A program made the position numbers and the translations under genes. The notes beneath the pieces are model-generated. The model worked only from the letters and a program-made list of their open reading frames with translations, made no database searches and had not been told where the DNA came from. Positions 3,184-15,313 of a DNA stretch of 22,215 nucleotides are shown one piece after another. Location: UHGV virus genome UHGV-0087471, one strand, 5' to 3'. Each line of letters starts with the position of its first letter. The stretch's first letter is position 1. The stretch comes from a virus.

Positions 3184-3498
3184 ATGTGCATACATCAAAA
3201 TCACTTAACAAACATGCCGACCGAAAACATGAATCAGGGGCGACAAATGACCAAAATGCGCAGAGACAGAACAGAACCGAAATATCGCGCGTTAGACATG
3301 ACAGAGCACGCTTTAAAGGTGGCAATCAGAACGATAGACCGCCACGCGGGGGAAGGATACGCGAAAGCACATCCCGAACTGATAAGCGCATTCATGACCA
3401 CGGCGGCGGCAAACTTTGCCACGCTGACAGAACGGGAGATTGCCGAAGCGGAACAGGTAACAACCATCAACGTTAAAACCGGAGAGGTGGAATTATGA
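3184..3498 (+). CDS. Hypothetical protein (104 aa)
   Basis: ORF with GAGGGGGG RBS about 10 nt upstream of ATG 3184; overlaps start of SSB gene. Start uncertain (internal Met codons possible). Confidence 0.4.
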   Translation: MCIHQNHLTNMPTENMNQGRQMTKMRRDRTEPKYRALDMTEHALKVAIRTIDRHAGEGYAKAHPELISAFMTTAAANFATLTEREIAEAEQVTTINVKTGEVEL

Positions 3499-3920
3499 CG
3501 GCACAGATAGCCGCTTACGGGCGGCTGGTGGACGACCCGCAGGTAAAACAGACCAGCAAGGGCACACCGATGACGCTGGCGCGTATGGCGGTATCTTTGC
3601 CATGCAGCCAGGCACAGGACGGACAGGCGACGTTATGGTTATCGGTCATCGCATTTGGCAAACAGGCCGACTTCCTGGCTAAACATCAAAAAGGCGATGT
3701 TGCCAGCGTATCCGGCACGATGCAGGTAAGCCAGTGGACCGGACAGAACGGAGAAACGCGGCAGGGCTGGCAGGTTATCGCAGACAGCGTGATCAGTGCG
3801 CGAACAGCGCGACCGGGCGGCAAAAAAGGCCAGCAGGGGCAGGCCACTGACGCACTGAACAGGGCAAAACAGCAGACGGGTCAGCACGATGATCCGTACG
3901 GGGACAACATACCGTTTTAG
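3495..3920 (+). CDS. ssb: Single-stranded DNA-binding protein (SSB-like, 141 aa)
   Basis: OB-fold-like N-terminal region, Gly/Gln-rich linker and acidic C-terminal tip ending DDPYGDNIPF, which resembles the conserved SSB C-terminal D-I-P-F tail. Confidence 0.7.
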   Translation: MTAQIAAYGRLVDDPQVKQTSKGTPMTLARMAVSLPCSQAQDGQATLWLSVIAFGKQADFLAKHQKGDVASVSGTMQVSQWTGQNGETRQGWQVIADSVISARTARPGGKKGQQGQATDALNRAKQQTGQHDDPYGDNIPF

Positions 3921-4185
3921 CGACAACAGAGGGGACATTCCAGTGACATTTGAAGAAGTCCAGCAACATAAAAAGTTTCATGATTTTGATGATCTGGAAA
4001 CCATGACAGCAAAAAAATATCGCCGTCTGCTTTCTTCCGATGCGTTGTTTGTTGTGGATCATCATGATTTTCTGCGTAGCTCACTGACCGGGGAAATTTT
4101 CGCAACCAACCGTGAGCAGGTGGAAGCGATGATCGAATATCTGTGGAAAATAAGGCGCAGAATGCGAGATCCCGTGAAACGGTAA
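3889..4185 (+). CDS. Hypothetical protein (start uncertain; alternative GTG at 3943)
   Basis: ORF overlapping SSB 3' end; followed by a stem-loop terminator. No recognisable motif. Confidence 0.35.
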   Translation: MIRTGTTYRFSDNRGDIPVTFEEVQQHKKFHDFDDLETMTAKKYRRLLSSDALFVVDHHDFLRSSLTGEIFATNREQVEAMIEYLWKIRRRMRDPVKR

Positions 4186-4194
4186 AATAATAAA

Positions 4195-4221
4195 GGCCTG
4201 GTAAAATCCAGGCCATTTTTT
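4195..4221. terminator. Bidirectional intrinsic terminator between convergent genes
   Basis: GGCCTGG-TAAAAT-CCAGGCC hairpin followed by ATTTTTT; sits between + strand gene ending 4185 and - strand gene ending 4220. Confidence 0.5.
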
Positions 4222-4726
4222 ACAGTAAGCCTATTAGGGCACTTGCGCCAGCCCCAACAATGCTGGCAACGGTACTGTTTTCCAGTAACTGCTTTAATAC
4301 TGATTTGGCTTGTACATCCCCCGATTTAGCGACTTTTTCAACCAGTTCAGTGATGCTGATGTTTACCAGCATATGGTTATGCTCACCTATCTGCACTTGA
4401 TCACCACTAATTGAACCAATGTTAAATGTATTACTTTTAGTTGGCGTCATATGTTCATTTCCCGTGATATTTTCAATATAGAGAGTCAACATATTTGGAT
4501 GATTGGTTCCCTGTCTGCGGGTTCCATTGGGAAGCAACTTCATATCTATAATTTTTAGATTTATCTCGTTTTTACCGACACGCTGGATAATGTGTTGACC
4601 AATAGTTACTTCCGGTTCATTTGTATATGGAATTAATACCTTGTTTTCTTTTGCGTTTCTTTTACCTCTGAATGATTCGCCATTAATTATGAAAGTATCA
4701 GGGTATACCATTGCGCTTAAATTCAT
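4220..4726 (-). CDS. Hypothetical cargo protein (168 aa) with hydrophobic C-terminus; candidate accessory/anti-phage gene
   Basis: Only opposite-strand gene inside the satellite; AT-rich by eye relative to flanking satellite genes; C-terminus VASIVGAGASALIGLL looks like a membrane anchor; located between replication and packaging modules. Confidence 0.55.
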   Translation of the reverse strand: MNLSAMVYPDTFIINGESFRGKRNAKENKVLIPYTNEPEVTIGQHIIQRVGKNEINLKIIDMKLLPNGTRRQGTNHPNMLTLYIENITGNEHMTPTKSNTFNIGSISGDQVQIGEHNHMLVNISITELVEKVAKSGDVQAKSVLKQLLENSTVASIVGAGASALIGLL

Positions 4727-5012
4727 GATGCGTCCTTTGTTGTAGTCAGAGACAGCAATAATAGGCCATGGTTTACTTCTTTTGTAAATTATTTGTTCGT
4801 GTTCTTTCGTGGTTGTTCGGTCTGACTGACAGGTGTTTACATACTGATTTTTATGTATATGTTGTAGCGTGGCACTCAGACGTGAGCCGCCACAATGCCG
4901 CCTGACCCCCTGCGCGATGCCGGGTTGATCTGCGAGATGCCGAGAGTGTCGGGCGGCGCTCCCCCCGTGTTGGTTTCACGTCCTGAATCTTAACCAATAC
5001 GAGAAAACCTTC

Positions 5013-6182
5013 ATGAAGAAATTAATCGAACTCCGCCAGCAAAAAAACGCCCTGAAAAACCAGATGCGATCCCTGCTGGAAAAAGCCGACAGTGAAAACC
5101 GTAGTCTGAACGCTGAAGAAGGCAAACAGTTTGATGAACTGCGTGCAAAAGCTGATGCCCTCGACACAGAAATTTCCCGCCTCGAGTCTGTGGCTGATGA
5201 AGAACGCAGCAAGCCAGGAACGGGCATCCAGAAATTATCATCTGATGAATTGCGTAACTACATCGTAACCGGAGATGTGCGATCACTGTCCACCAGCACT
5301 GACAGCGGCAGGGATGGCGGATATACCGTAATTCCTGAGCTTGATCGCGAAGTCATGCGCCAGCTACAGGATGACAGTGTTATGCGCGTGATCGCGACCG
5401 TGAAGACCGCAAAATCAAATGAGTTTCAGAAACTGGTTTCCACTGGCGGCGCAACTGTAGGACGAGGCACAGAAGGCAGCGCACGCAGTGAAACCAACAC
5501 CCCGAAAATTGAACGCGTAACCATCAAGTTGAATCCGATCTACGCCTACCCGAAAACCACGCAGGAAATCCTGGATTTTTCAGAGGTGGATATTCTGGGC
5601 TGGTTATCCTCCGAAATTGCCGACACGTTCGCCAGCACCGAAGAGGATGATTTTGTTAATGGCGACGGTAACGGCAAGCCGAAAGGCTTCATGGCTTACA
5701 CCCGTGCGGCGACCAGTGACAAAACCCGCGCTTTTGGCACCATTGAAAAAATAGTAGCGGCAAGTGGAACCGCCATTACAGCGGACGAACTGATCGACAT
5801 TCTCTACAAGCTGAAAGCGAAATACCGCAAAAATGCCGTATGGGTGATGAACTCGGGCACGGCAGGGACACTACAGAAGCTGAAAAATGAGAACGGCGAT
5901 TATATCTGGCGCGACAGCCTTAAAGAAGGTGCGCCGGATATGTTGCTTGGTCGTCCTGTTTACTGCCTGGAGTCCATGCCGGACATCGGCGCAGGAAAAG
6001 CACCGCTAGCGGTTGGCGATTTCAGTCGTGGTTATTTCATCGTTGATCATGTAACAGGGATTCGCACCCGACCGGACAACATTACTGAACCCGGATTCTA
6101 CAAGGTCCACACGGATAAATATCTGGGCGGTGGTGTGGTGGATTCAAACGCCATCAAAATTCTGGAAATGAAAGCTGGCTAG
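5013..6182 (+). CDS. Major capsid protein, HK97-like fold (389 aa)
   Basis: N-terminal coiled-coil delta/scaffold-like domain followed by a capsid-type region (GNGKPKG, LLGRPV..ES motifs); size typical of HK97-family capsid proteins. Confidence 0.85.
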   Translation: MKKLIELRQQKNALKNQMRSLLEKADSENRSLNAEEGKQFDELRAKADALDTEISRLESVADEERSKPGTGIQKLSSDELRNYIVTGDVRSLSTSTDSGRDGGYTVIPELDREVMRQLQDDSVMRVIATVKTAKSNEFQKLVSTGGATVGRGTEGSARSETNTPKIERVTIKLNPIYAYPKTTQEILDFSEVDILGWLSSEIADTFASTEEDDFVNGDGNGKPKGFMAYTRAATSDKTRAFGTIEKIVAASGTAITADELIDILYKLKAKYRKNAVWVMNSGTAGTLQKLKNENGDYIWRDSLKEGAPDMLLGRPVYCLESMPDIGAGKAPLAVGDFSRGYFIVDHVTGIRTRPDNITEPGFYKVHTDKYLGGGVVDSNAIKILEMKAG

Positions 6183-6798: not shown

Positions 6799-8013
6799 AT
6801 GTGGTGGCCTTTTAGTCGTAAAAAAAGCGAGCAGCGTAACCTGTCCATTGATGATTTTCTGGCGCTGTCCGGCGTACCGAATACCGGATCCGGAGAATAT
6901 GTTTCTGCCGGGACGGCTGAATCATTGCCTGCAGTGATGAATGCGGTTTCTGTCATCGCTGAGGCGGTGGCCACGATGCCGTGTTATCTGTATCTGGTAC
7001 GTAATGACAAGGGCAGGGAGGCGCGGGAATGGCTGGACAGTCACCCGGTAGATATTCTGCTGAATGAGCAGCCTAATTCGTGCCAGACACCTTACCAGTT
7101 TAAACGCACAATGATGCGTCACTGCCTGCTGAACGGTAACGCCTATGCGGTTATTGAGTGGGGGCAGGACGGGCAGCCAAAATCACTTCATCCTTATGCG
7201 CCGGGGTGTGTTGTACCGGAACGCACAGGCGCACACAAATACCGCTATACCATCACCGAACCCTGTACAGGAACGGTGCGCACGTATTTACAGGAAGAAG
7301 TTCTGCATCTCCGCTATGCCTCGGATGATGGCTTTCTGGGGCGTTCCCCCGTCACGATTTGCCGTGAGGCGCTGGGGCTTGGCCTTGCTCAACAGCGTCA
7401 CGGAGCCAGCATTATGAAAGATGGCATGATGGCGGCAGGGATTATCACGTCAGGCGAATGGCTGGACGGCGTGAAAGGTAAACAGGCATTGGATGCTCTG
7501 GAACGCTACAAGGGGGCGAAAAATGCCGGAAAAACGCCAATCCTTGAAGGGGGCATGGATTACAGGCAACTGGGAATGAGTAACCAGGATGCGGAATGGC
7601 TGGCCTCCCGTCGCTTCTCCATTGAAGACATCGCCCGCATGTTCAACGTATCGCCTATTTTTCTGCAGGAATACAGCAACAGCACCTACAGCAATTTCAG
7701 CGAGGCAAGCCGCGCGTTTCTGACCATGACAATGCGCCCGTGGCTGGCGAACTTCGAACAGCAAATCAAGGCCGCTTTGCTGGTGGCTTCTCCCGTACCT
7801 GGTACCCGTTATCTGGTTGAGTTTGATTCAGCCGATTTATTACGCGCCACACCCACCGAACGTTATGCCACGTATGAGAAAGGGATTAAGAACGGGATCA
7901 TGAATCCGAACGAAGCCCGTGAGCGTGAGGGTATGCCGCCGCGTGAAGGTGGTGATGAGTTCAGCCAGGCATGGAAACAGACTGTGGAAATTAAAGGGAG
8001 AAAAGATGAGTGA
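6799..8013 (+). CDS. Portal protein, HK97 family (404 aa)
   Basis: Size and motifs typical of portal proteins; start set to ATG 6799 just after the protease stop rather than the longest ORF start at 6709. Confidence 0.8.
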   Translation: MWWPFSRKKSEQRNLSIDDFLALSGVPNTGSGEYVSAGTAESLPAVMNAVSVIAEAVATMPCYLYLVRNDKGREAREWLDSHPVDILLNEQPNSCQTPYQFKRTMMRHCLLNGNAYAVIEWGQDGQPKSLHPYAPGCVVPERTGAHKYRYTITEPCTGTVRTYLQEEVLHLRYASDDGFLGRSPVTICREALGLGLAQQRHGASIMKDGMMAAGIITSGEWLDGVKGKQALDALERYKGAKNAGKTPILEGGMDYRQLGMSNQDAEWLASRRFSIEDIARMFNVSPIFLQEYSNSTYSNFSEASRAFLTMTMRPWLANFEQQIKAALLVASPVPGTRYLVEFDSADLLRATPTERYATYEKGIKNGIMNPNEAREREGMPPREGGDEFSQAWKQTVEIKGRKDE

Positions 8014-8308
8014 AGCCAAAATTACACCTGATGAAGTCAGGGCACATCTTCGACTTGATGATGATTTATCCGGTGAAGGCGAACTTCTGAAAATGTATAC
8101 CGATGCGGCGCTGGAAGCCTGCCAGAAGCATATCGGGAAACGTTTTGAAGACGGGCTGGAATTTACCCCGGCAATGCGTGTTGGTTGCCTGATGTACATC
8201 GCTTTCCTGTACGAGAACCGGGAAGCGGTTTCACCAGTGGAGCACTCGGAACTGCCTATGGCTATTTCTGCGCTCTGGTCAGTTTATCGTGACGTAGGGG
8301 TGTACTGA
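8006..8308 (+). CDS. Head-tail connector / DNA-packaging protein, gp6-like (100 aa)
   Basis: N-terminal ITPDEVRAHLRLDDD...E..LLK.Y.DAA.EA pattern typical of gp6-like connectors; AAGGGAG RBS; start ATG 8006 overlaps portal stop. Confidence 0.6.
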   Translation: MSEAKITPDEVRAHLRLDDDLSGEGELLKMYTDAALEACQKHIGKRFEDGLEFTPAMRVGCLMYIAFLYENREAVSPVEHSELPMAISALWSVYRDVGVY

Positions 8309-8748
8309 TGCCGTGGCAACCATTAAGGCGATGCACTGAGCCTGGCTGTAATAAGCGCGTGAAGTCCGGCAAGTGTGAAGAGCACAGGCGGGCTGCATGG
8401 CGTGCAGAGGATGCCAGACGGGGACACCGCCGCGCGCGCGGGTATTCCCGACAGTGGGACAAATACCGCGCCCTGTACCTGAGCAAAAACCCGTTATGCG
8501 TGAGTTGTCTGGCTAAGGGGATTTATACGCCAGCTCTTGTGGTGGATCACATCATTCCCATCAATGGCGGCGGTGATGTTCTCTTCTGGCCTGAGTGGAA
8601 CCACCAGGCATTGTGCCAGACGTGCCACAACCGTAAGACGACACGGGAAGATCCCGCCACGAAAGCGAACCGTAAGGCGGGCATGTATCGCGATCAGGAA
8701 GAACGGGCGGCACACCGTAACGACTGGATGTATGGCGATGATGACTGA
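8308..8748 (+). CDS. HNH endonuclease (terminase-associated, 146 aa)
   Basis: Cys-rich N-terminus (CTEPGCN...C..H) and HNH core (VDHIIPINGGG...NHQALCQTCHNRKT); positioned directly upstream of terS as in HNH-dependent cos packaging systems. Confidence 0.85.
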   Translation: MPWQPLRRCTEPGCNKRVKSGKCEEHRRAAWRAEDARRGHRRARGYSRQWDKYRALYLSKNPLCVSCLAKGIYTPALVVDHIIPINGGGDVLFWPEWNHQALCQTCHNRKTTREDPATKANRKAGMYRDQEERAAHRNDWMYGDDD

Positions 8749-9393: not shown

Positions 9394-11038
9394 GTACGCA
9401 GAAGACGTAAAAACGGGCAAAATTCCGGCCTGTAAACGGCTGAAACAGGCCGTTAAACGGTACTTTTCGGACCTTGAAAGCCCCCTTTACACGTTCGATC
9501 GTGAGGTTGTGGAGCGGTTTATTGCCTTTTCCAGGGTGTGCGCGCACGTAAAAGGGCCGATGCGTGGCAGACCCATTGAGCTGGAGCCGTGGCAGCAGTT
9601 CGCCTTTGCGTGCATCCTCGGCTTTAAGGTTAAGGCCACCGGACGGCGCAAATACACGAGCGCCTTTATCGAAGTGCCGCGCAAAAATGCGAAATCCACG
9701 ACCGCCGCGATTCTGGCTAACTGGTTTCTGATTATGGAGAACGGTCAGCAGGATATCTACACCGCAGCGGTGAGCCGTGACCAGGCGCGGATCGTCTTTG
9801 ATGATGCGCGTCAGATGTGCCTTTTATCCCGACCGTTACGCAGGCGGGTGAATATTCAGGCGCATAAGGTGATACACCCGAAAACCAACAGCCTGTTAAA
9901 GCCACTGGCAGCAAAAGCGGCAACCATTGAGGGGACAAACCCGAGTCTTGCCATTGTGGATGAATATCACCTGCACCCAGACAACGGGGTTTATTCCGCA
10001 CTTGATATGGGGATGGGCGCACGTCCCGAAGGGCTGTTATTTGCCATTACCACATCGGGCAGTAACGTCGTTTCAGCCTGTAAGCAGCACTATGATTATT
10101 GCTGCCAGATCCTGGACGGCGAAGAGGTCAACGATTCAATTTTTGTACTGATTTACGAACTGGACGACGAAAACGAGGTTGATGATCCGGCGATGTGGAT
10201 AAAGGCTAACCCTAACATCGATGTTTCCGTCGATCGTGAAAAACTGGCCTCAACCATCCAGAAAGCGCGGGGTATTCCGTCGCAATGGGTGGAAATGCTC
10301 ACCAAGCGATTCAATATCTGGTGTCAGGGGGCTACGCCGTGGATGGGTAACGGTGCATGGGCGGAGTGTGCCGGAACGTTCGCGGAGGCGGATTTATACG
10401 GGCAGGAGTGCTACGCGGGGCTGGACTTATCATCAACCAGCGATATTTCCAGCGTGTGCTATGCCTTCCCGGTCGGTAAAAAGATTATGCTGGTTTCCCG
10501 TCACTATCTGCCGGAATTTCAGCTACAGAATCCCGCCAATAAAAACCGCGCCATCTATCGCCAGTGGGTAAAGGCGGGCTGGATACGCACAACACCGGGT
10601 GACTGCATTGATTATGACCGTATCCGTGATGACATCATGGCGGATGCAGAGAATTTCAATATCAGGCTGGTGGGCTTCGATACATGGAACGCCACGCACC
10701 TGAGGACGCAGTTACAGGGCGCAGGATTTGAGGTGGAGCCGTTCCCGCAAACCTACCTCAGATTCAGTCCGGCGGCGAAATCGTTCGAAGTTTTTGTTAA
10801 CCGGAAGGTGATTGTGCATCGTGGTGATCCGGTGCTGGCCTGGTCAATGAGTAATGTTGTGATGCAGAGTGACGCGAACGCCAATATCAAGCCGAACAAG
10901 AAAAAATCATCCAACAAGATAGACCCGAGCGTTGCGGCGCTGATGGCGTTTGGCACATTCCAGGCAGAGCACGAGGACTTTGCATTCGATATGAGCGACA
11001 GCCACAAAGAGCGGCTTGCGGCGTTTGATGGGGTATGA
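9377..11038 (+). CDS. terL: Terminase large subunit (553 aa)
   Basis: Large ORF with terminase-type ATPase N-terminal half and nuclease C-terminal half; appears to start with TTG at 9377 (GAGGA 6 nt upstream), overlapping terS. Confidence 0.9.
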   Translation: MTAWNKYAEDVKTGKIPACKRLKQAVKRYFSDLESPLYTFDREVVERFIAFSRVCAHVKGPMRGRPIELEPWQQFAFACILGFKVKATGRRKYTSAFIEVPRKNAKSTTAAILANWFLIMENGQQDIYTAAVSRDQARIVFDDARQMCLLSRPLRRRVNIQAHKVIHPKTNSLLKPLAAKAATIEGTNPSLAIVDEYHLHPDNGVYSALDMGMGARPEGLLFAITTSGSNVVSACKQHYDYCCQILDGEEVNDSIFVLIYELDDENEVDDPAMWIKANPNIDVSVDREKLASTIQKARGIPSQWVEMLTKRFNIWCQGATPWMGNGAWAECAGTFAEADLYGQECYAGLDLSSTSDISSVCYAFPVGKKIMLVSRHYLPEFQLQNPANKNRAIYRQWVKAGWIRTTPGDCIDYDRIRDDIMADAENFNIRLVGFDTWNATHLRTQLQGAGFEVEPFPQTYLRFSPAAKSFEVFVNRKVIVHRGDPVLAWSMSNVVMQSDANANIKPNKKKSSNKIDPSVAALMAFGTFQAEHEDFAFDMSDSHKERLAAFDGV

Positions 11039-11328: not shown

Positions 11329-12254
11329 CTTGCAGATATTCCCGATAACGTAAAATTGCGTTGGCTGGCAGAGTGCAAATTTGCACGATGGCCTAACCCA
11401 TTGATTGTTTCGGAAACCTCAATTTGAGGAGGCCGGACAGCGTGACGGAGGGTGACAACCAGTGACACGCCGTGACAAAAAGACGGTTTAACCATCCATT
11501 AAAAATCGACGTGATTTTGTGCTTTCCGTATGAGGTGGCCAGCGTCATTTTTTAGTGAGAAATTCTGGTCAGGGGCGTTGGCTGAATGGTTATTTTATCG
11601 TGCCCATGCACAGGGAGGGGGCGGGTAAAATCTCTGGAGGTGATGCCTGTCAGGACCGCCGCCTGACCCTTCCTCACATCGCCGCAGGTTCGAAAACTTT
11701 TTTTGTGTCAGGTGCGCACGGAATTGATAGATAAAACCTATATTAAAAAATCACGGAAGCCGTGCCATTGCTGGAGCAGTCAAAAATTCCACATCTCACG
11801 GCAGGCAAAAAAAGCGAATTTTGGGCCAGTTGAGGATAAAAAAGGGCTCACTAGTTTTGCACATCCTGGTATCGGGGTCGTCAGCCTCCCGCCAGTAACT
11901 AGGTAACTAATCACGCTGGTGGGCATGATGCCGATGCCGGGATCTCGGTATCGGTTTATCTGTGATCATCCACCAGCTTGATGACAGATAACAGGGAGTC
12001 ATAACGGTTAAAGCGTGTTGATCTTTGTTCGTGGTTGTTCGATATTGTTCGTAAAGCGGTGTAGTTAATGGTGTAGTTAATTTCGCTGTTTTTGACGAGC
12101 TTATCATTTGCAACGCAATGAAAAACAAAGACTAATTAACAAAATGCTATAAATGATAGTTATCTATCATGTGGAGTAGATTGGTCAGGCAAATAAGCTC
12201 TTGTCAGCGGCAGGGCGTTCTGCCGATAACCGTAACCGAAGATGATAACTGACA

Positions 12255-15094: not shown

Positions 15095-15182
15095 GTTCAC
15101 TGCCGTACAGGCAGCTTAGAAATTGCCGCGGATCCTGTCTGCCAATAATGACAAGTTCACTGCCGTACAGGCAGATAAAATG
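15095..15182 (+). CRISPR. Minimal orphan type I-F CRISPR array (2 repeats, 1 spacer)
   Basis: Repeat 1 GTTCACTGCCGTACAGGCAGCTTAGAAA (15095..15122) matches the canonical I-F repeat; 32-bp spacer TTGCCGCGGATCCTGTCTGCCAATAATGACAA (15123..15154); repeat 2 (15155..15182) degenerate at its 3' end. No cas genes in window. Confidence 0.8.
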
Positions 15183-15225: not shown

Positions 15226-15313
15226 TGGCGGTGAGGGGGGGATTCGAACCCCCGATACGTTGCCGTATACACACTTTCCAGGCGTGCTCCTTCAGCCACT
15301 CGGACACCTCACC
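15226..15313 (-). tRNA. serW: tRNA-Ser (anticodon GGA)
   Basis: 88-nt sequence GGTGAGGTGTCCGAGTGGCTGAAGGAGCACGCCTGGAAAGTGTG...GGTTCGAATCCCCCCCTCACCGCCA on minus strand; long variable arm, encoded CCA; clpA-serW gap (344 bp) matches my recollection of E. coli K-12. Confidence 0.95.

Follow-up and report, generated by a model that had tools for sequence, protein, structure and literature searches.

Cell death controlled by amyloid formation is established in animals (through the RIP homotypic interaction motif, RHIM, and the necrosome) and in fungi (through HET-S). To our knowledge, bacterial examples comprise one E. coli system, Bab/Agp, and, as candidates, the Bell/NLR pairs of filamentous bacteria. 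In Bab/Agp, a membrane effector controlled by an amyloid motif brings about abortive infection in E. coli. Resistance to T5 is lost when beta-breaker mutations are placed in the 20-residue Bab/Agp motif, and Bab moves to the periphery of the cell (10.1101/2024.11.07.622273). BASS3 motifs form fibrils and prions, and a G-phi-Q-phi-G signature is common to RHIM, PP, and BASS3 (Dyrka 2020, 10.1101/2020.01.06.895854). Adjacent genes with a common short motif are the defining signature of amyloid-signaling pairs in fungi and bacteria (10.1101/2020.01.06.895854; 10.1101/2024.11.07.622273). Here, these systems are compared with one gene of the UHGV virus genome UHGV-0087471, a stretch of 22,215 nucleotides referred to below as the window. 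The gene (4220..4726, minus strand) encodes a 168-amino acid protein and is carried by a capsid-forming phage-inducible chromosomal island (cfPICI), a satellite located between cspD/yljB and clpS. We propose, with a probability of roughly 0.45, that it is an independently expressed moron cargo of the cfPICI whose product combines a RHIM-type polymerization switch with a membrane-active tail and acts in abortive infection or exclusion.

An initial annotation of the window had described this gene as satellite cargo with a hydrophobic C-terminal segment, which might be a single-gene abortive-infection or exclusion factor. The open reading frame holds up as annotated, with an ATG start and a TAA stop, and its 168-residue product begins MNLSAMVYPDTF and ends NSTVASIVGAGASALIGLL (the C-terminal end is also written ...TVASIVGAGASALIGLL). 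There are 98 homologs at E<=1e-3, mostly of about 168 residues. The nonsynonymous divergence (dN) from homologs is 0.1-0.5 with saturated synonymous divergence (dS), and omega is 0.05-0.25 where calculable, indicating purifying selection. The identical protein occurs on at least 1000 public contigs and is unnamed in all of them. Because of these homologs, a dN far below the saturated dS, the RefSeq coding sequence, and the many contigs, 4220..4726 is, on sequence grounds, an expressed and selected gene and no chance reading frame. Its GC content is lower than that of its neighbors, as annotated: 0.381 compared with 0.505-0.531 in the rest of the island, and 0.355 at third codon positions compared with 0.549 in the capsid gene. 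The gene, its parts, and its signals are the following, with column entropies given in bits.

4195..4214, no strand assigned: bidirectional intrinsic terminator hairpin common to the convergent upstream gene (6 of its 7 pairs are GC, and each strand has a T-run)
4220..4726, minus strand: coding sequence of 168 amino acids, WP_001053662.1 "hypothetical protein", with the stop codon at 4220-4222 (RefSeq, homologs)
4223..4276, minus strand: C-terminal Gly/Ala-rich hydrophobic tail, residues 151-168 (STVASIVGAGASALIGLL), helical in AlphaFold2, with the lowest entropy (0.68)
4277..4351, minus strand: two amphipathic helices, residues 126-150, with near-invariant D137, A140, and K141 (AlphaFold2 confidence 83-92, conservation; entropy 1.17)
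4352..4429, minus strand: conserved RHIM-like motif region, residues 100-125: TFNIGSISGDQVQIGEHNHMLVNISI (entropy 0.98; Pfam RHIM match)
4385..4396, minus strand: core tetrad V111-Q112-I113-G114, followed by N117, fitting the [IV]Q[IVLC]G core of RHIM
4430..4456, minus strand: variable linker, residues 91-99, with insertions and deletions and the highest entropy (2.25)
4457..4726, minus strand: all-beta N-terminal head, variable and swappable, residues 1-90 (AlphaFold2 confidence about 90; entropy 1.25)
4733..4737, minus strand: Shine-Dalgarno sequence AAGGA, 6 nucleotides 5' of the ATG (direct sequence reading)
4758..4788, minus strand: possible weak sigma-70 promoter, TTTACA (4788-4783), 19-nucleotide spacer, TATTAT (4763-4758) (our reading)

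The AlphaFold2 model, run with 80 homologs, has a mean confidence (predicted local distance difference test, pLDDT) of 81 and consists of a beta head, a low-confidence stretch, and C-terminal helices. Residues ~91-124 are predicted as coil at pLDDT 48-59, with the minimum at 106-112, and helices are predicted at 125-135, 138-149, 151-157, and 161-167 with pLDDT 83-92. No internal segment of the protein is better conserved than this stretch, FNIGSISGDQVQIGEHNHMLVNISI, though it is the lowest in AlphaFold2 confidence. Residues I103, Q112, G114, and N117 are invariant among the 80 sequences, and G114, N117, A140, K141, and G158 are at least 90% conserved across 96 far more distant members. The motif segments of 184 family members align in register with zero gaps, which, to judge from the alignment, is not how a disordered linker would behave. 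Read directly, F-N-I-G-S-I-S-G-D-Q-V-Q-I-G-E-H-N-H-M-L-V-N-I-S-I comprises three short runs of alternating hydrophobic and polar residues with Gly/Ser/Asn turns between them. We dropped the idea that the motif follows a hexapeptide (left-handed beta-helix) pattern, since by our reading the Ile/Gly spacing is 10 and not a multiple of 6.

RHIM (PF12721) is the sole Pfam match of the window protein (15.4 bits, E=0.014, residues 110-119). It is also the commonest Pfam family over 96 diverse relatives, 21 of which match it with a best E-value of 1.1e-5. Five distant relatives score above 20 bits (P0243, 25.2; P0185, 24.9; P0209, 23.3; P0204, 21.6; P0224, 21.0), and the NCBI name of one cluster member is "RIP homotypic interaction motif-containing protein". 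The window protein has the [IV]-Q-[IVLC]-G core plus the conserved Asn, and 185/245 family sequences contain [IVLFM]Q[IVLFM]G with an N two or three positions further on. Distant relatives also carry G-phi-Q-phi-G, as in NSQGIQIGDHN and NSTGVQVGNHN. For a reverse test, we turned 35 family motifs into a 29-column profile and compared it with all 177,635 distinct PDB sequences. It returned ten matches, all ten of them RHIM amyloid chains: mouse and human RIPK1 (E from 7e-5 to 0.08), human and mouse RIPK3 (0.01-0.28), and M45 of murine cytomegalovirus (MCMV; 0.008). In one of the alignments, iinsqgVQIGnhNiQti is paired with IFNSSGIQIGNHNYMDV (mouse RIPK1); the profile also aligns to VNIYNCSGVQVGDNNYLT (RIPK3) and SGIQIGNHNAMSIA (M45). 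The family motif thus appears to be RHIM-type, with the window member a divergent copy that fails the Pfam cut-off and stands at the weaker end of the RHIM evidence. A PDB sequence search with a 32-mer and the whole-protein profile gave nothing relevant, and a CsrA match (E=0.11) was judged to be chance. Two relatives overlap weakly with EAD10 (PF19954) on the motif/helix at 16.4 and 13.1 bits, under the threshold of 24.1 bits.

The part of the protein that begins with the motif behaves as a module. A profile search of 1.84 billion representatives recovered 254 relatives, many of which match profile positions ~92-169 only (motif, helices, and tail) and have unrelated heads; a few match the head only. 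The alternative heads include a zinc ribbon, winged helix-turn-helix-like domains, and several unknown folds, and searches against Pfam gave no family for any of them. One relative (P0096) has a different head and a C-module that is 80% identical, and it occupies the same slot in another cfPICI. The N-domain also evolves faster, with a dN of 0.46-0.50 compared with 0.10 in the C-module (4-5-fold). The conserved module ends in a tail whose last 17 residues have Kyte-Doolittle values of 1.6-1.9, with small residues at i, i+4 (G157, S161, G165). This small-xxx-small spacing resembles a glycine zipper. The hydrophobic C-terminus seen in the initial annotation is evident here as well, with a value of 1.9 across the last 15 residues.

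The head is predicted to be a small beta-barrel of a common type. Foldseek searches of BFVD and PDB gave no significant match, and PNPOx, PilZ, and Hcp barrels ranked alike. A likeness of the N-domain to head-closure proteins (HCP; PF05521, Phage_HCP) is weak and at the level of the fold only. Homology to HCP is unsupported by hhalign, in which the profile-profile comparison with a cfPICI HCP has a probability of 0.2%, and it stays a weak fold-level lead. The window cfPICI does not have the Phage_HCP gene that a related cfPICI has, and the head as a decoy of a neck protein is a lead from fold comparison. Over its full length, the 168-residue protein is covered by PHROG 5789 (function unknown; E=8.5e-85). 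That it could not be assigned to a family still holds for curated families: the Pfam match is sub-threshold, PADLOC and NCBIfam give none, and the PHROG is without a function. Profile and fold searches placed it in no housekeeping or structural phage family.

At least eight loci (L016, L053, L063, L064, L067, L068, L070, and L021) have an adjacent paralog of 252-259 amino acids with a different head. The paralog sits directly upstream of the canonical gene of ~170 amino acids, as in the following two-gene cargos, in which it has the motif but no hydrophobic tail.

L063: 5192-5968 and 5998-6504
L016: 9156-9920 and 9995-10507

In two of the satellites, L063 and L064, the capsid gene has 98% identity to that of the window. 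The members of the L063 pair have only the motif and the following helices in common (26% over 76 amino acids, E=9e-7), and the paralog is without a hydrophobic tail. Judged by this arrangement, two-gene cargo may be a sensor-effector pair. A six-frame scan of the window found no second motif, so the window element carries the solo form and not the pair. The window and the neighboring loci examined contain no NLR or STAND gene, and the motif is not at an effector C-terminus. In the Vreelandella locus L021, two family members with different heads (7833-8453 and 9998-10504) lie ~1.5 kb apart with a 453-amino acid protein between them.

The element that carries the gene has an integrase and a primase together with its own capsid, protease, portal, connector, HNH, TerS, and TerL genes, and no tail genes. 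This content agrees with the description of cfPICIs (10.1101/2022.09.08.507074). A 17-bp direct repeat, AATGGTGTAGTTAATTT, flanks the satellite of ~14.3 kb between cspD/yljB and clpS, and from its sequence and position the two copies are candidate attL and attR core sites. The main features of the satellite are these.

1148-2896: D5-type primase (RefSeq/Pfam)
3495-3920: SSB (RefSeq/Pfam)
4202..4779, no strand assigned: inserted cargo cassette of 578 bp, GC 0.384, missing from sister cfPICIs (alignment with empty-slot sisters)
4780..5012, plus strand: conserved backbone leader of the capsid/packaging operon, outside the cargo (kept in all sister satellites)
5013-6182: HK97-type capsid gene, with protease and portal also present (RefSeq/Pfam)
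7919-8308: gp6-like connector, with HNH, TerS, and TerL also present (RefSeq/Pfam)
~12067-12083 (15918-15934 in L001): one copy of the direct repeat
1662-1678 in L001, outside the window: the other copy of the direct repeat

The term cargo proved apt. The gene belongs to a presence/absence cassette seated at a fixed cfPICI slot, at the terminator between the replication and capsid modules, and homologs are also found in accessory or moron positions of prophages. The flanks are matched in 153 of 5426 complete E. coli genomes, only 51 of which have the entire gene. In IMG/VR, the homolog is divergent from the cfPICI capsid gene in 46 of the 51 loci that have one, and homologs in Kluyvera, Pluralibacter, Enterobacter, Photorhabdus, and Klebsiella are placed likewise. 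The slot is a cargo hotspot, because it is found empty in some otherwise collinear sister cfPICIs and is elsewhere occupied by the allele with a different head, by a second, tail-less family member, or by an unrelated protein. The last of these is a protein of 201-217 amino acids with an N-terminal membrane helix that adjoins the canonical gene in two loci (L047, 5372-5977; L069, 5320-5973) and is a candidate for further cargo. The region after pri in PICIs was shown experimentally to carry defense genes (PMC11364771).

The terminator shared with the convergent gene was annotated correctly and scores on both strands as a GC-rich hairpin of 7 bp. The upstream region that the annotation had assigned to the gene (4727..5010) is mostly not private to it. 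Only 53 bp (4727-4779) belong to the cassette, and 4780-5012 is conserved backbone that is found where the gene is missing. This GC-rich leader of ~230 bp has a promoter-like TTTACA/16-nucleotide spacer/TATGTT at 4836-4863 and probably serves to regulate the packaging operon. A consensus promoter scan limited to spacers of 16-18 nucleotides found no minus-strand promoter for the 168-residue gene. The promoter candidate at 4758..4788, with its 19-nucleotide spacer, is a possible one by sequence; its -35 element lies in the backbone and its -10 element in the cassette. An Rfam scan of the region around the gene found no RNA. The claim that this is the only minus-strand gene in the island does not hold, as RefSeq has a minus-strand YlcI/YnfO-family coding sequence at ~50-229; the 168-residue gene is the sole one between the replication and packaging modules. 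The convergent gene (3889-4185, plus strand; 82/98 amino acids) is without a Pfam family and is kept beside the slot in cfPICIs of several genera at 33-93% identity. Farther away, a lone Rfam CRISPR-DR4 (type I-F) repeat (50.1 bits; 15095-15122, plus strand) lies next to a tRNA (15229-15313, minus strand) downstream of clpA and looks like a CRISPR remnant. This region downstream of clpA is one that we take to be a known E. coli CRISPR site.

Satellites and prophages of E. coli, Klebsiella, Enterobacter, Pseudomonas, Shewanella, and other bacteria carry members of the family, and copies are scattered across further phyla. Homologs occupy accessory DNA in a P2-like prophage of Pseudomonas, beside HEPN-like, S8-protease, and methyltransferase genes, as well as the moron slot that separates Rz from the terminase in a lambdoid E. 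coli phage. Others lie in small islands of hypothetical genes. A scan of 142 neighboring proteins from 15 non-satellite loci found integrases, IS110 and IS66 transposases, and Mu-like head genes, as well as PADLOC matches to PD-Lambda-1, PD-Lambda-2, PD-Lambda-5_B, PDC-S20/S57/S60, QatA, and PifA.

The suggestion that this gene may encode an abortive-infection or exclusion factor is strengthened by the RHIM-like motif, the tail resembling a glycine zipper, head swapping, purifying selection, and the defense-family neighbors in non-satellite loci. In the mechanism that we propose, the protein would do no harm in the resting cell, where it would be a monomer or anchored by its tail. The fast-evolving head may sense a phage-derived cue or hold the protein inactive. 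Motifs would be brought together by a phage cue that works via the head or via the motif of a partner, and the RHIM-type motif, disordered in the monomer, would then form an ordered, amyloid-like homotypic polymer. This polymer would concentrate the amphipathic helices and the glycine zipper-like tails, which could breach the inner membrane. As a result, the infection would be aborted, or phages other than the helper of the satellite would be excluded. A bolder form of this proposal, which we consider doubtful, is a necroptosis analogue in one polypeptide. There, the exchangeable head, as a decoy or as a sensor, would detect a phage product, a true RHIM-type amyloid would nucleate, the tails would make a lethal membrane lesion, and the pairs of sister satellites would cross-seed.

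Several observations weigh against a RHIM-type switch joined to a membrane effector. The window protein is below the RHIM gathering threshold (15.4 compared with 20 bits), and the Pfam model is itself short. The protein also departs from G-phi-Q-phi-G, as it reads G108-D-Q-V-Q-I-G114, with the upstream Gly two residues too far. In the reverse test, the motif set was anchored by a regular expression on the core, a choice that favors this core, and distant members are over-represented in the set. A profile of the close clade of the window protein matches RIPK3 only, with E=1-1.9, and the whole-protein profile recovers no RHIM chain from PDB. Low AlphaFold2 confidence does not by itself prove an amyloid. 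The motif is internal (residues 100-125 of 168), and the described signaling amyloids are all terminal. Pfam and structural searches found no Bell/HeLo-like domain, and the hydrophobic helix is C-terminal, not N-terminal. At 17 residues, the tail is short for a membrane span. None of the 5027 models of PADLOC-DB v2 matches the protein at E<=10, and the defense-family neighbors, a raw tally without a background control, are suggestive of a defense context.

Some of these points suit another explanation, in which the protein is a tail-anchored inner-membrane moron for superinfection exclusion, a block of DNA entry, or lysogenic conversion. It would have no amyloid switch, and residues 100-125 would be a beta-rich oligomerization or linker element. 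Prophages commonly carry small exclusion proteins anchored in the membrane. In the family described here, the hydrophobic C-terminus is conserved, the gene occupies moron positions in prophages and satellites, and the RHIM score of the window protein itself is sub-threshold. However, this explanation, which we regard as unlikely, does not account for the fixed spacing and high conservation of a segment predicted to be unstructured. It also leaves unexplained the relatives above the RHIM threshold, a motif profile that retrieves RHIM chains only, and the adjoining tail-less paralogs with just the motif in common.

The RHIM-like motif itself would also be compatible with counter-defense. Herpesvirus RHIMs, those of M45 and ICP6, block necroptosis, and the protein could likewise be a decoy that co-polymerizes with, and poisons, a host amyloid-signaling defense of the Bab/Agp or NLR/Bell type. 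The motif profile does match the viral inhibitor M45, the carriers are mobile elements that profit from phage success, and amyloid-signaling defense is present in E. coli prophage hotspots (10.1101/2024.11.07.622273). The exchange of heads and the strong conservation of the membrane tail suggest, however, a sensor-effector and not a passive decoy, and no cognate host sensor with the motif was seen in the window and the 80-odd loci, save for paralogs of the same family. Orientation and private signals further point to independent, moron-type expression and not to co-transcription with the packaging operon, and we consider the decoy role improbable. A similarly low chance is given to interference between satellite and helper at head-tail joining. 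In this scenario, the barrel, as a mimic of a head-closure or stopper protein, would close off helper heads or attach to tail terminators, and tails would be diverted to satellite capsids. The structural and profile comparisons of the head speak against it, with nothing significant from Foldseek, barrels of other families ranking equally, and the null result with the cfPICI HCP. Moreover, sister satellites work with the slot empty, the same C-module is found with unrelated heads and outside satellites, and the motif and the membrane tail would be left without a role. A small share of the probability is given to none of these four explanations.

A RHIM-type motif appears to mark a widespread, unannotated family whose heads are exchangeable and whose membrane tail is conserved; our search of the literature yielded no description of the family. 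If the RHIM-type switch proposed here is correct, the 168-residue protein would be the smallest known amyloid-switch immune device, encoded by one gene, and would add a class of cargo to the defense hotspots of satellites. RHIM-type amyloid signaling would extend to enterobacterial mobile elements, with E. coli as a tractable model, and the swappable heads would be a natural library with which to identify the phage cues that are sensed. It would also bear on possible prokaryotic roots of RHIM signaling and on a possible evolutionary link to animal RHIMs.

Among described satellite defenses, Tai of PICIs, P4-like satellites, and prophages (PMC11364771) has a similar genomic setting. Tai, too, is encoded by one small gene for which PADLOC has no model; the gene lies in the accessory region that follows pri in PICIs or, in lambdoid phages, precedes the packaging module, and phi80 taiEcA, like the window gene, is on the opposite strand to its neighbors. 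Tai proteins are, in contrast, all-helical, of about 190-204 amino acids, and without the motif and hydrophobic tail of the window protein. Membership in Tai was rejected, with a BLASTP E-value of 0.068 against phi80 Orf63 and no WP_001053662 in the supplementary text of PMC11364771. The phi80 protein Orf63/TaiEcA (L012, 4366-4980) has an R-x4-H motif (MRNDLAH) in a helical context that is reminiscent of HEPN domains.

The Bab/Agp system (BASS11, E. coli ECOR25) also shares features with the window protein. Both are found in E. coli and in prophage or defense hotspots. Both join a short, conserved Gly/Asn-rich beta motif, disordered in the monomer, to a few helices, among them a hydrophobic one with Gly for which membrane targeting is proposed. 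Adjacent motif-sharing genes are a further likeness, here in sister satellites. The BASS11 residues I87-G88-S89-V90 and N100 (only those quoted in the paper) resemble I103-G104-S105-[IV]106...N117 of the family, with an offset of one residue. The order of the parts differs, since Bab has its hydrophobic helix at the N-terminus and its motif at the C-terminus, whereas the window protein runs from head to motif, helices, and C-terminal tail. Bab also needs Agp, a sensor of 1094 amino acids with TPR-GreA/B-C-PIN architecture, whereas the window gene is solo and its motif RHIM-type.

In its type, the motif itself resembles those of BASS3 and of animals. BASS3 Bell-NLR pairs of Actinobacteria and Cyanobacteria have a bacterial RHIM-type core that is matched by the same Pfam model, PF12721. 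They are reported only in multicellular bacteria, and the motifs are at protein termini and paired with NB-ARC/NACHT NLRs and Bell domains. Unlike BASS3, the family described here is found in satellites and prophages of unicellular Gammaproteobacteria and has an internal motif, swappable heads, no NLR, and no Bell domain. The metazoan and viral RHIMs (RIPK1, RIPK3, ZBP1, and TRIF; MCMV M45) share the core [IV]-Q-[IV]-G-x-x-N and flanking N and S. They are linked to antiviral cell death, and the same link is proposed for the family here. In contrast to the necrosome, the family is without a kinase and would have its effector in cis instead of in a separate MLKL, and the match of the window protein is weak. 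For a RHIM-type motif of 15-20 residues, the resemblance may reflect either common descent or convergence.

Fungal HET-S, like the protein as proposed here, is a single polypeptide with an amyloid switch and a membrane-inserting Gly-rich helix, with helix release by templated folding as the proposed logic of both. Its domain order is reversed, however, and it has a HeLo fold and the HET-s r1/r2 repeats instead of a RHIM-type motif. By analogy, the window protein would resemble BASS3 and RHIM in its type of motif and Bab/HET-S and RIPK3-MLKL in its logic. It differs from these known systems in the order of its parts, in being a single gene in this element, in its swappable heads, and in its carriers, which are cfPICIs and P2-like and lambdoid prophages.

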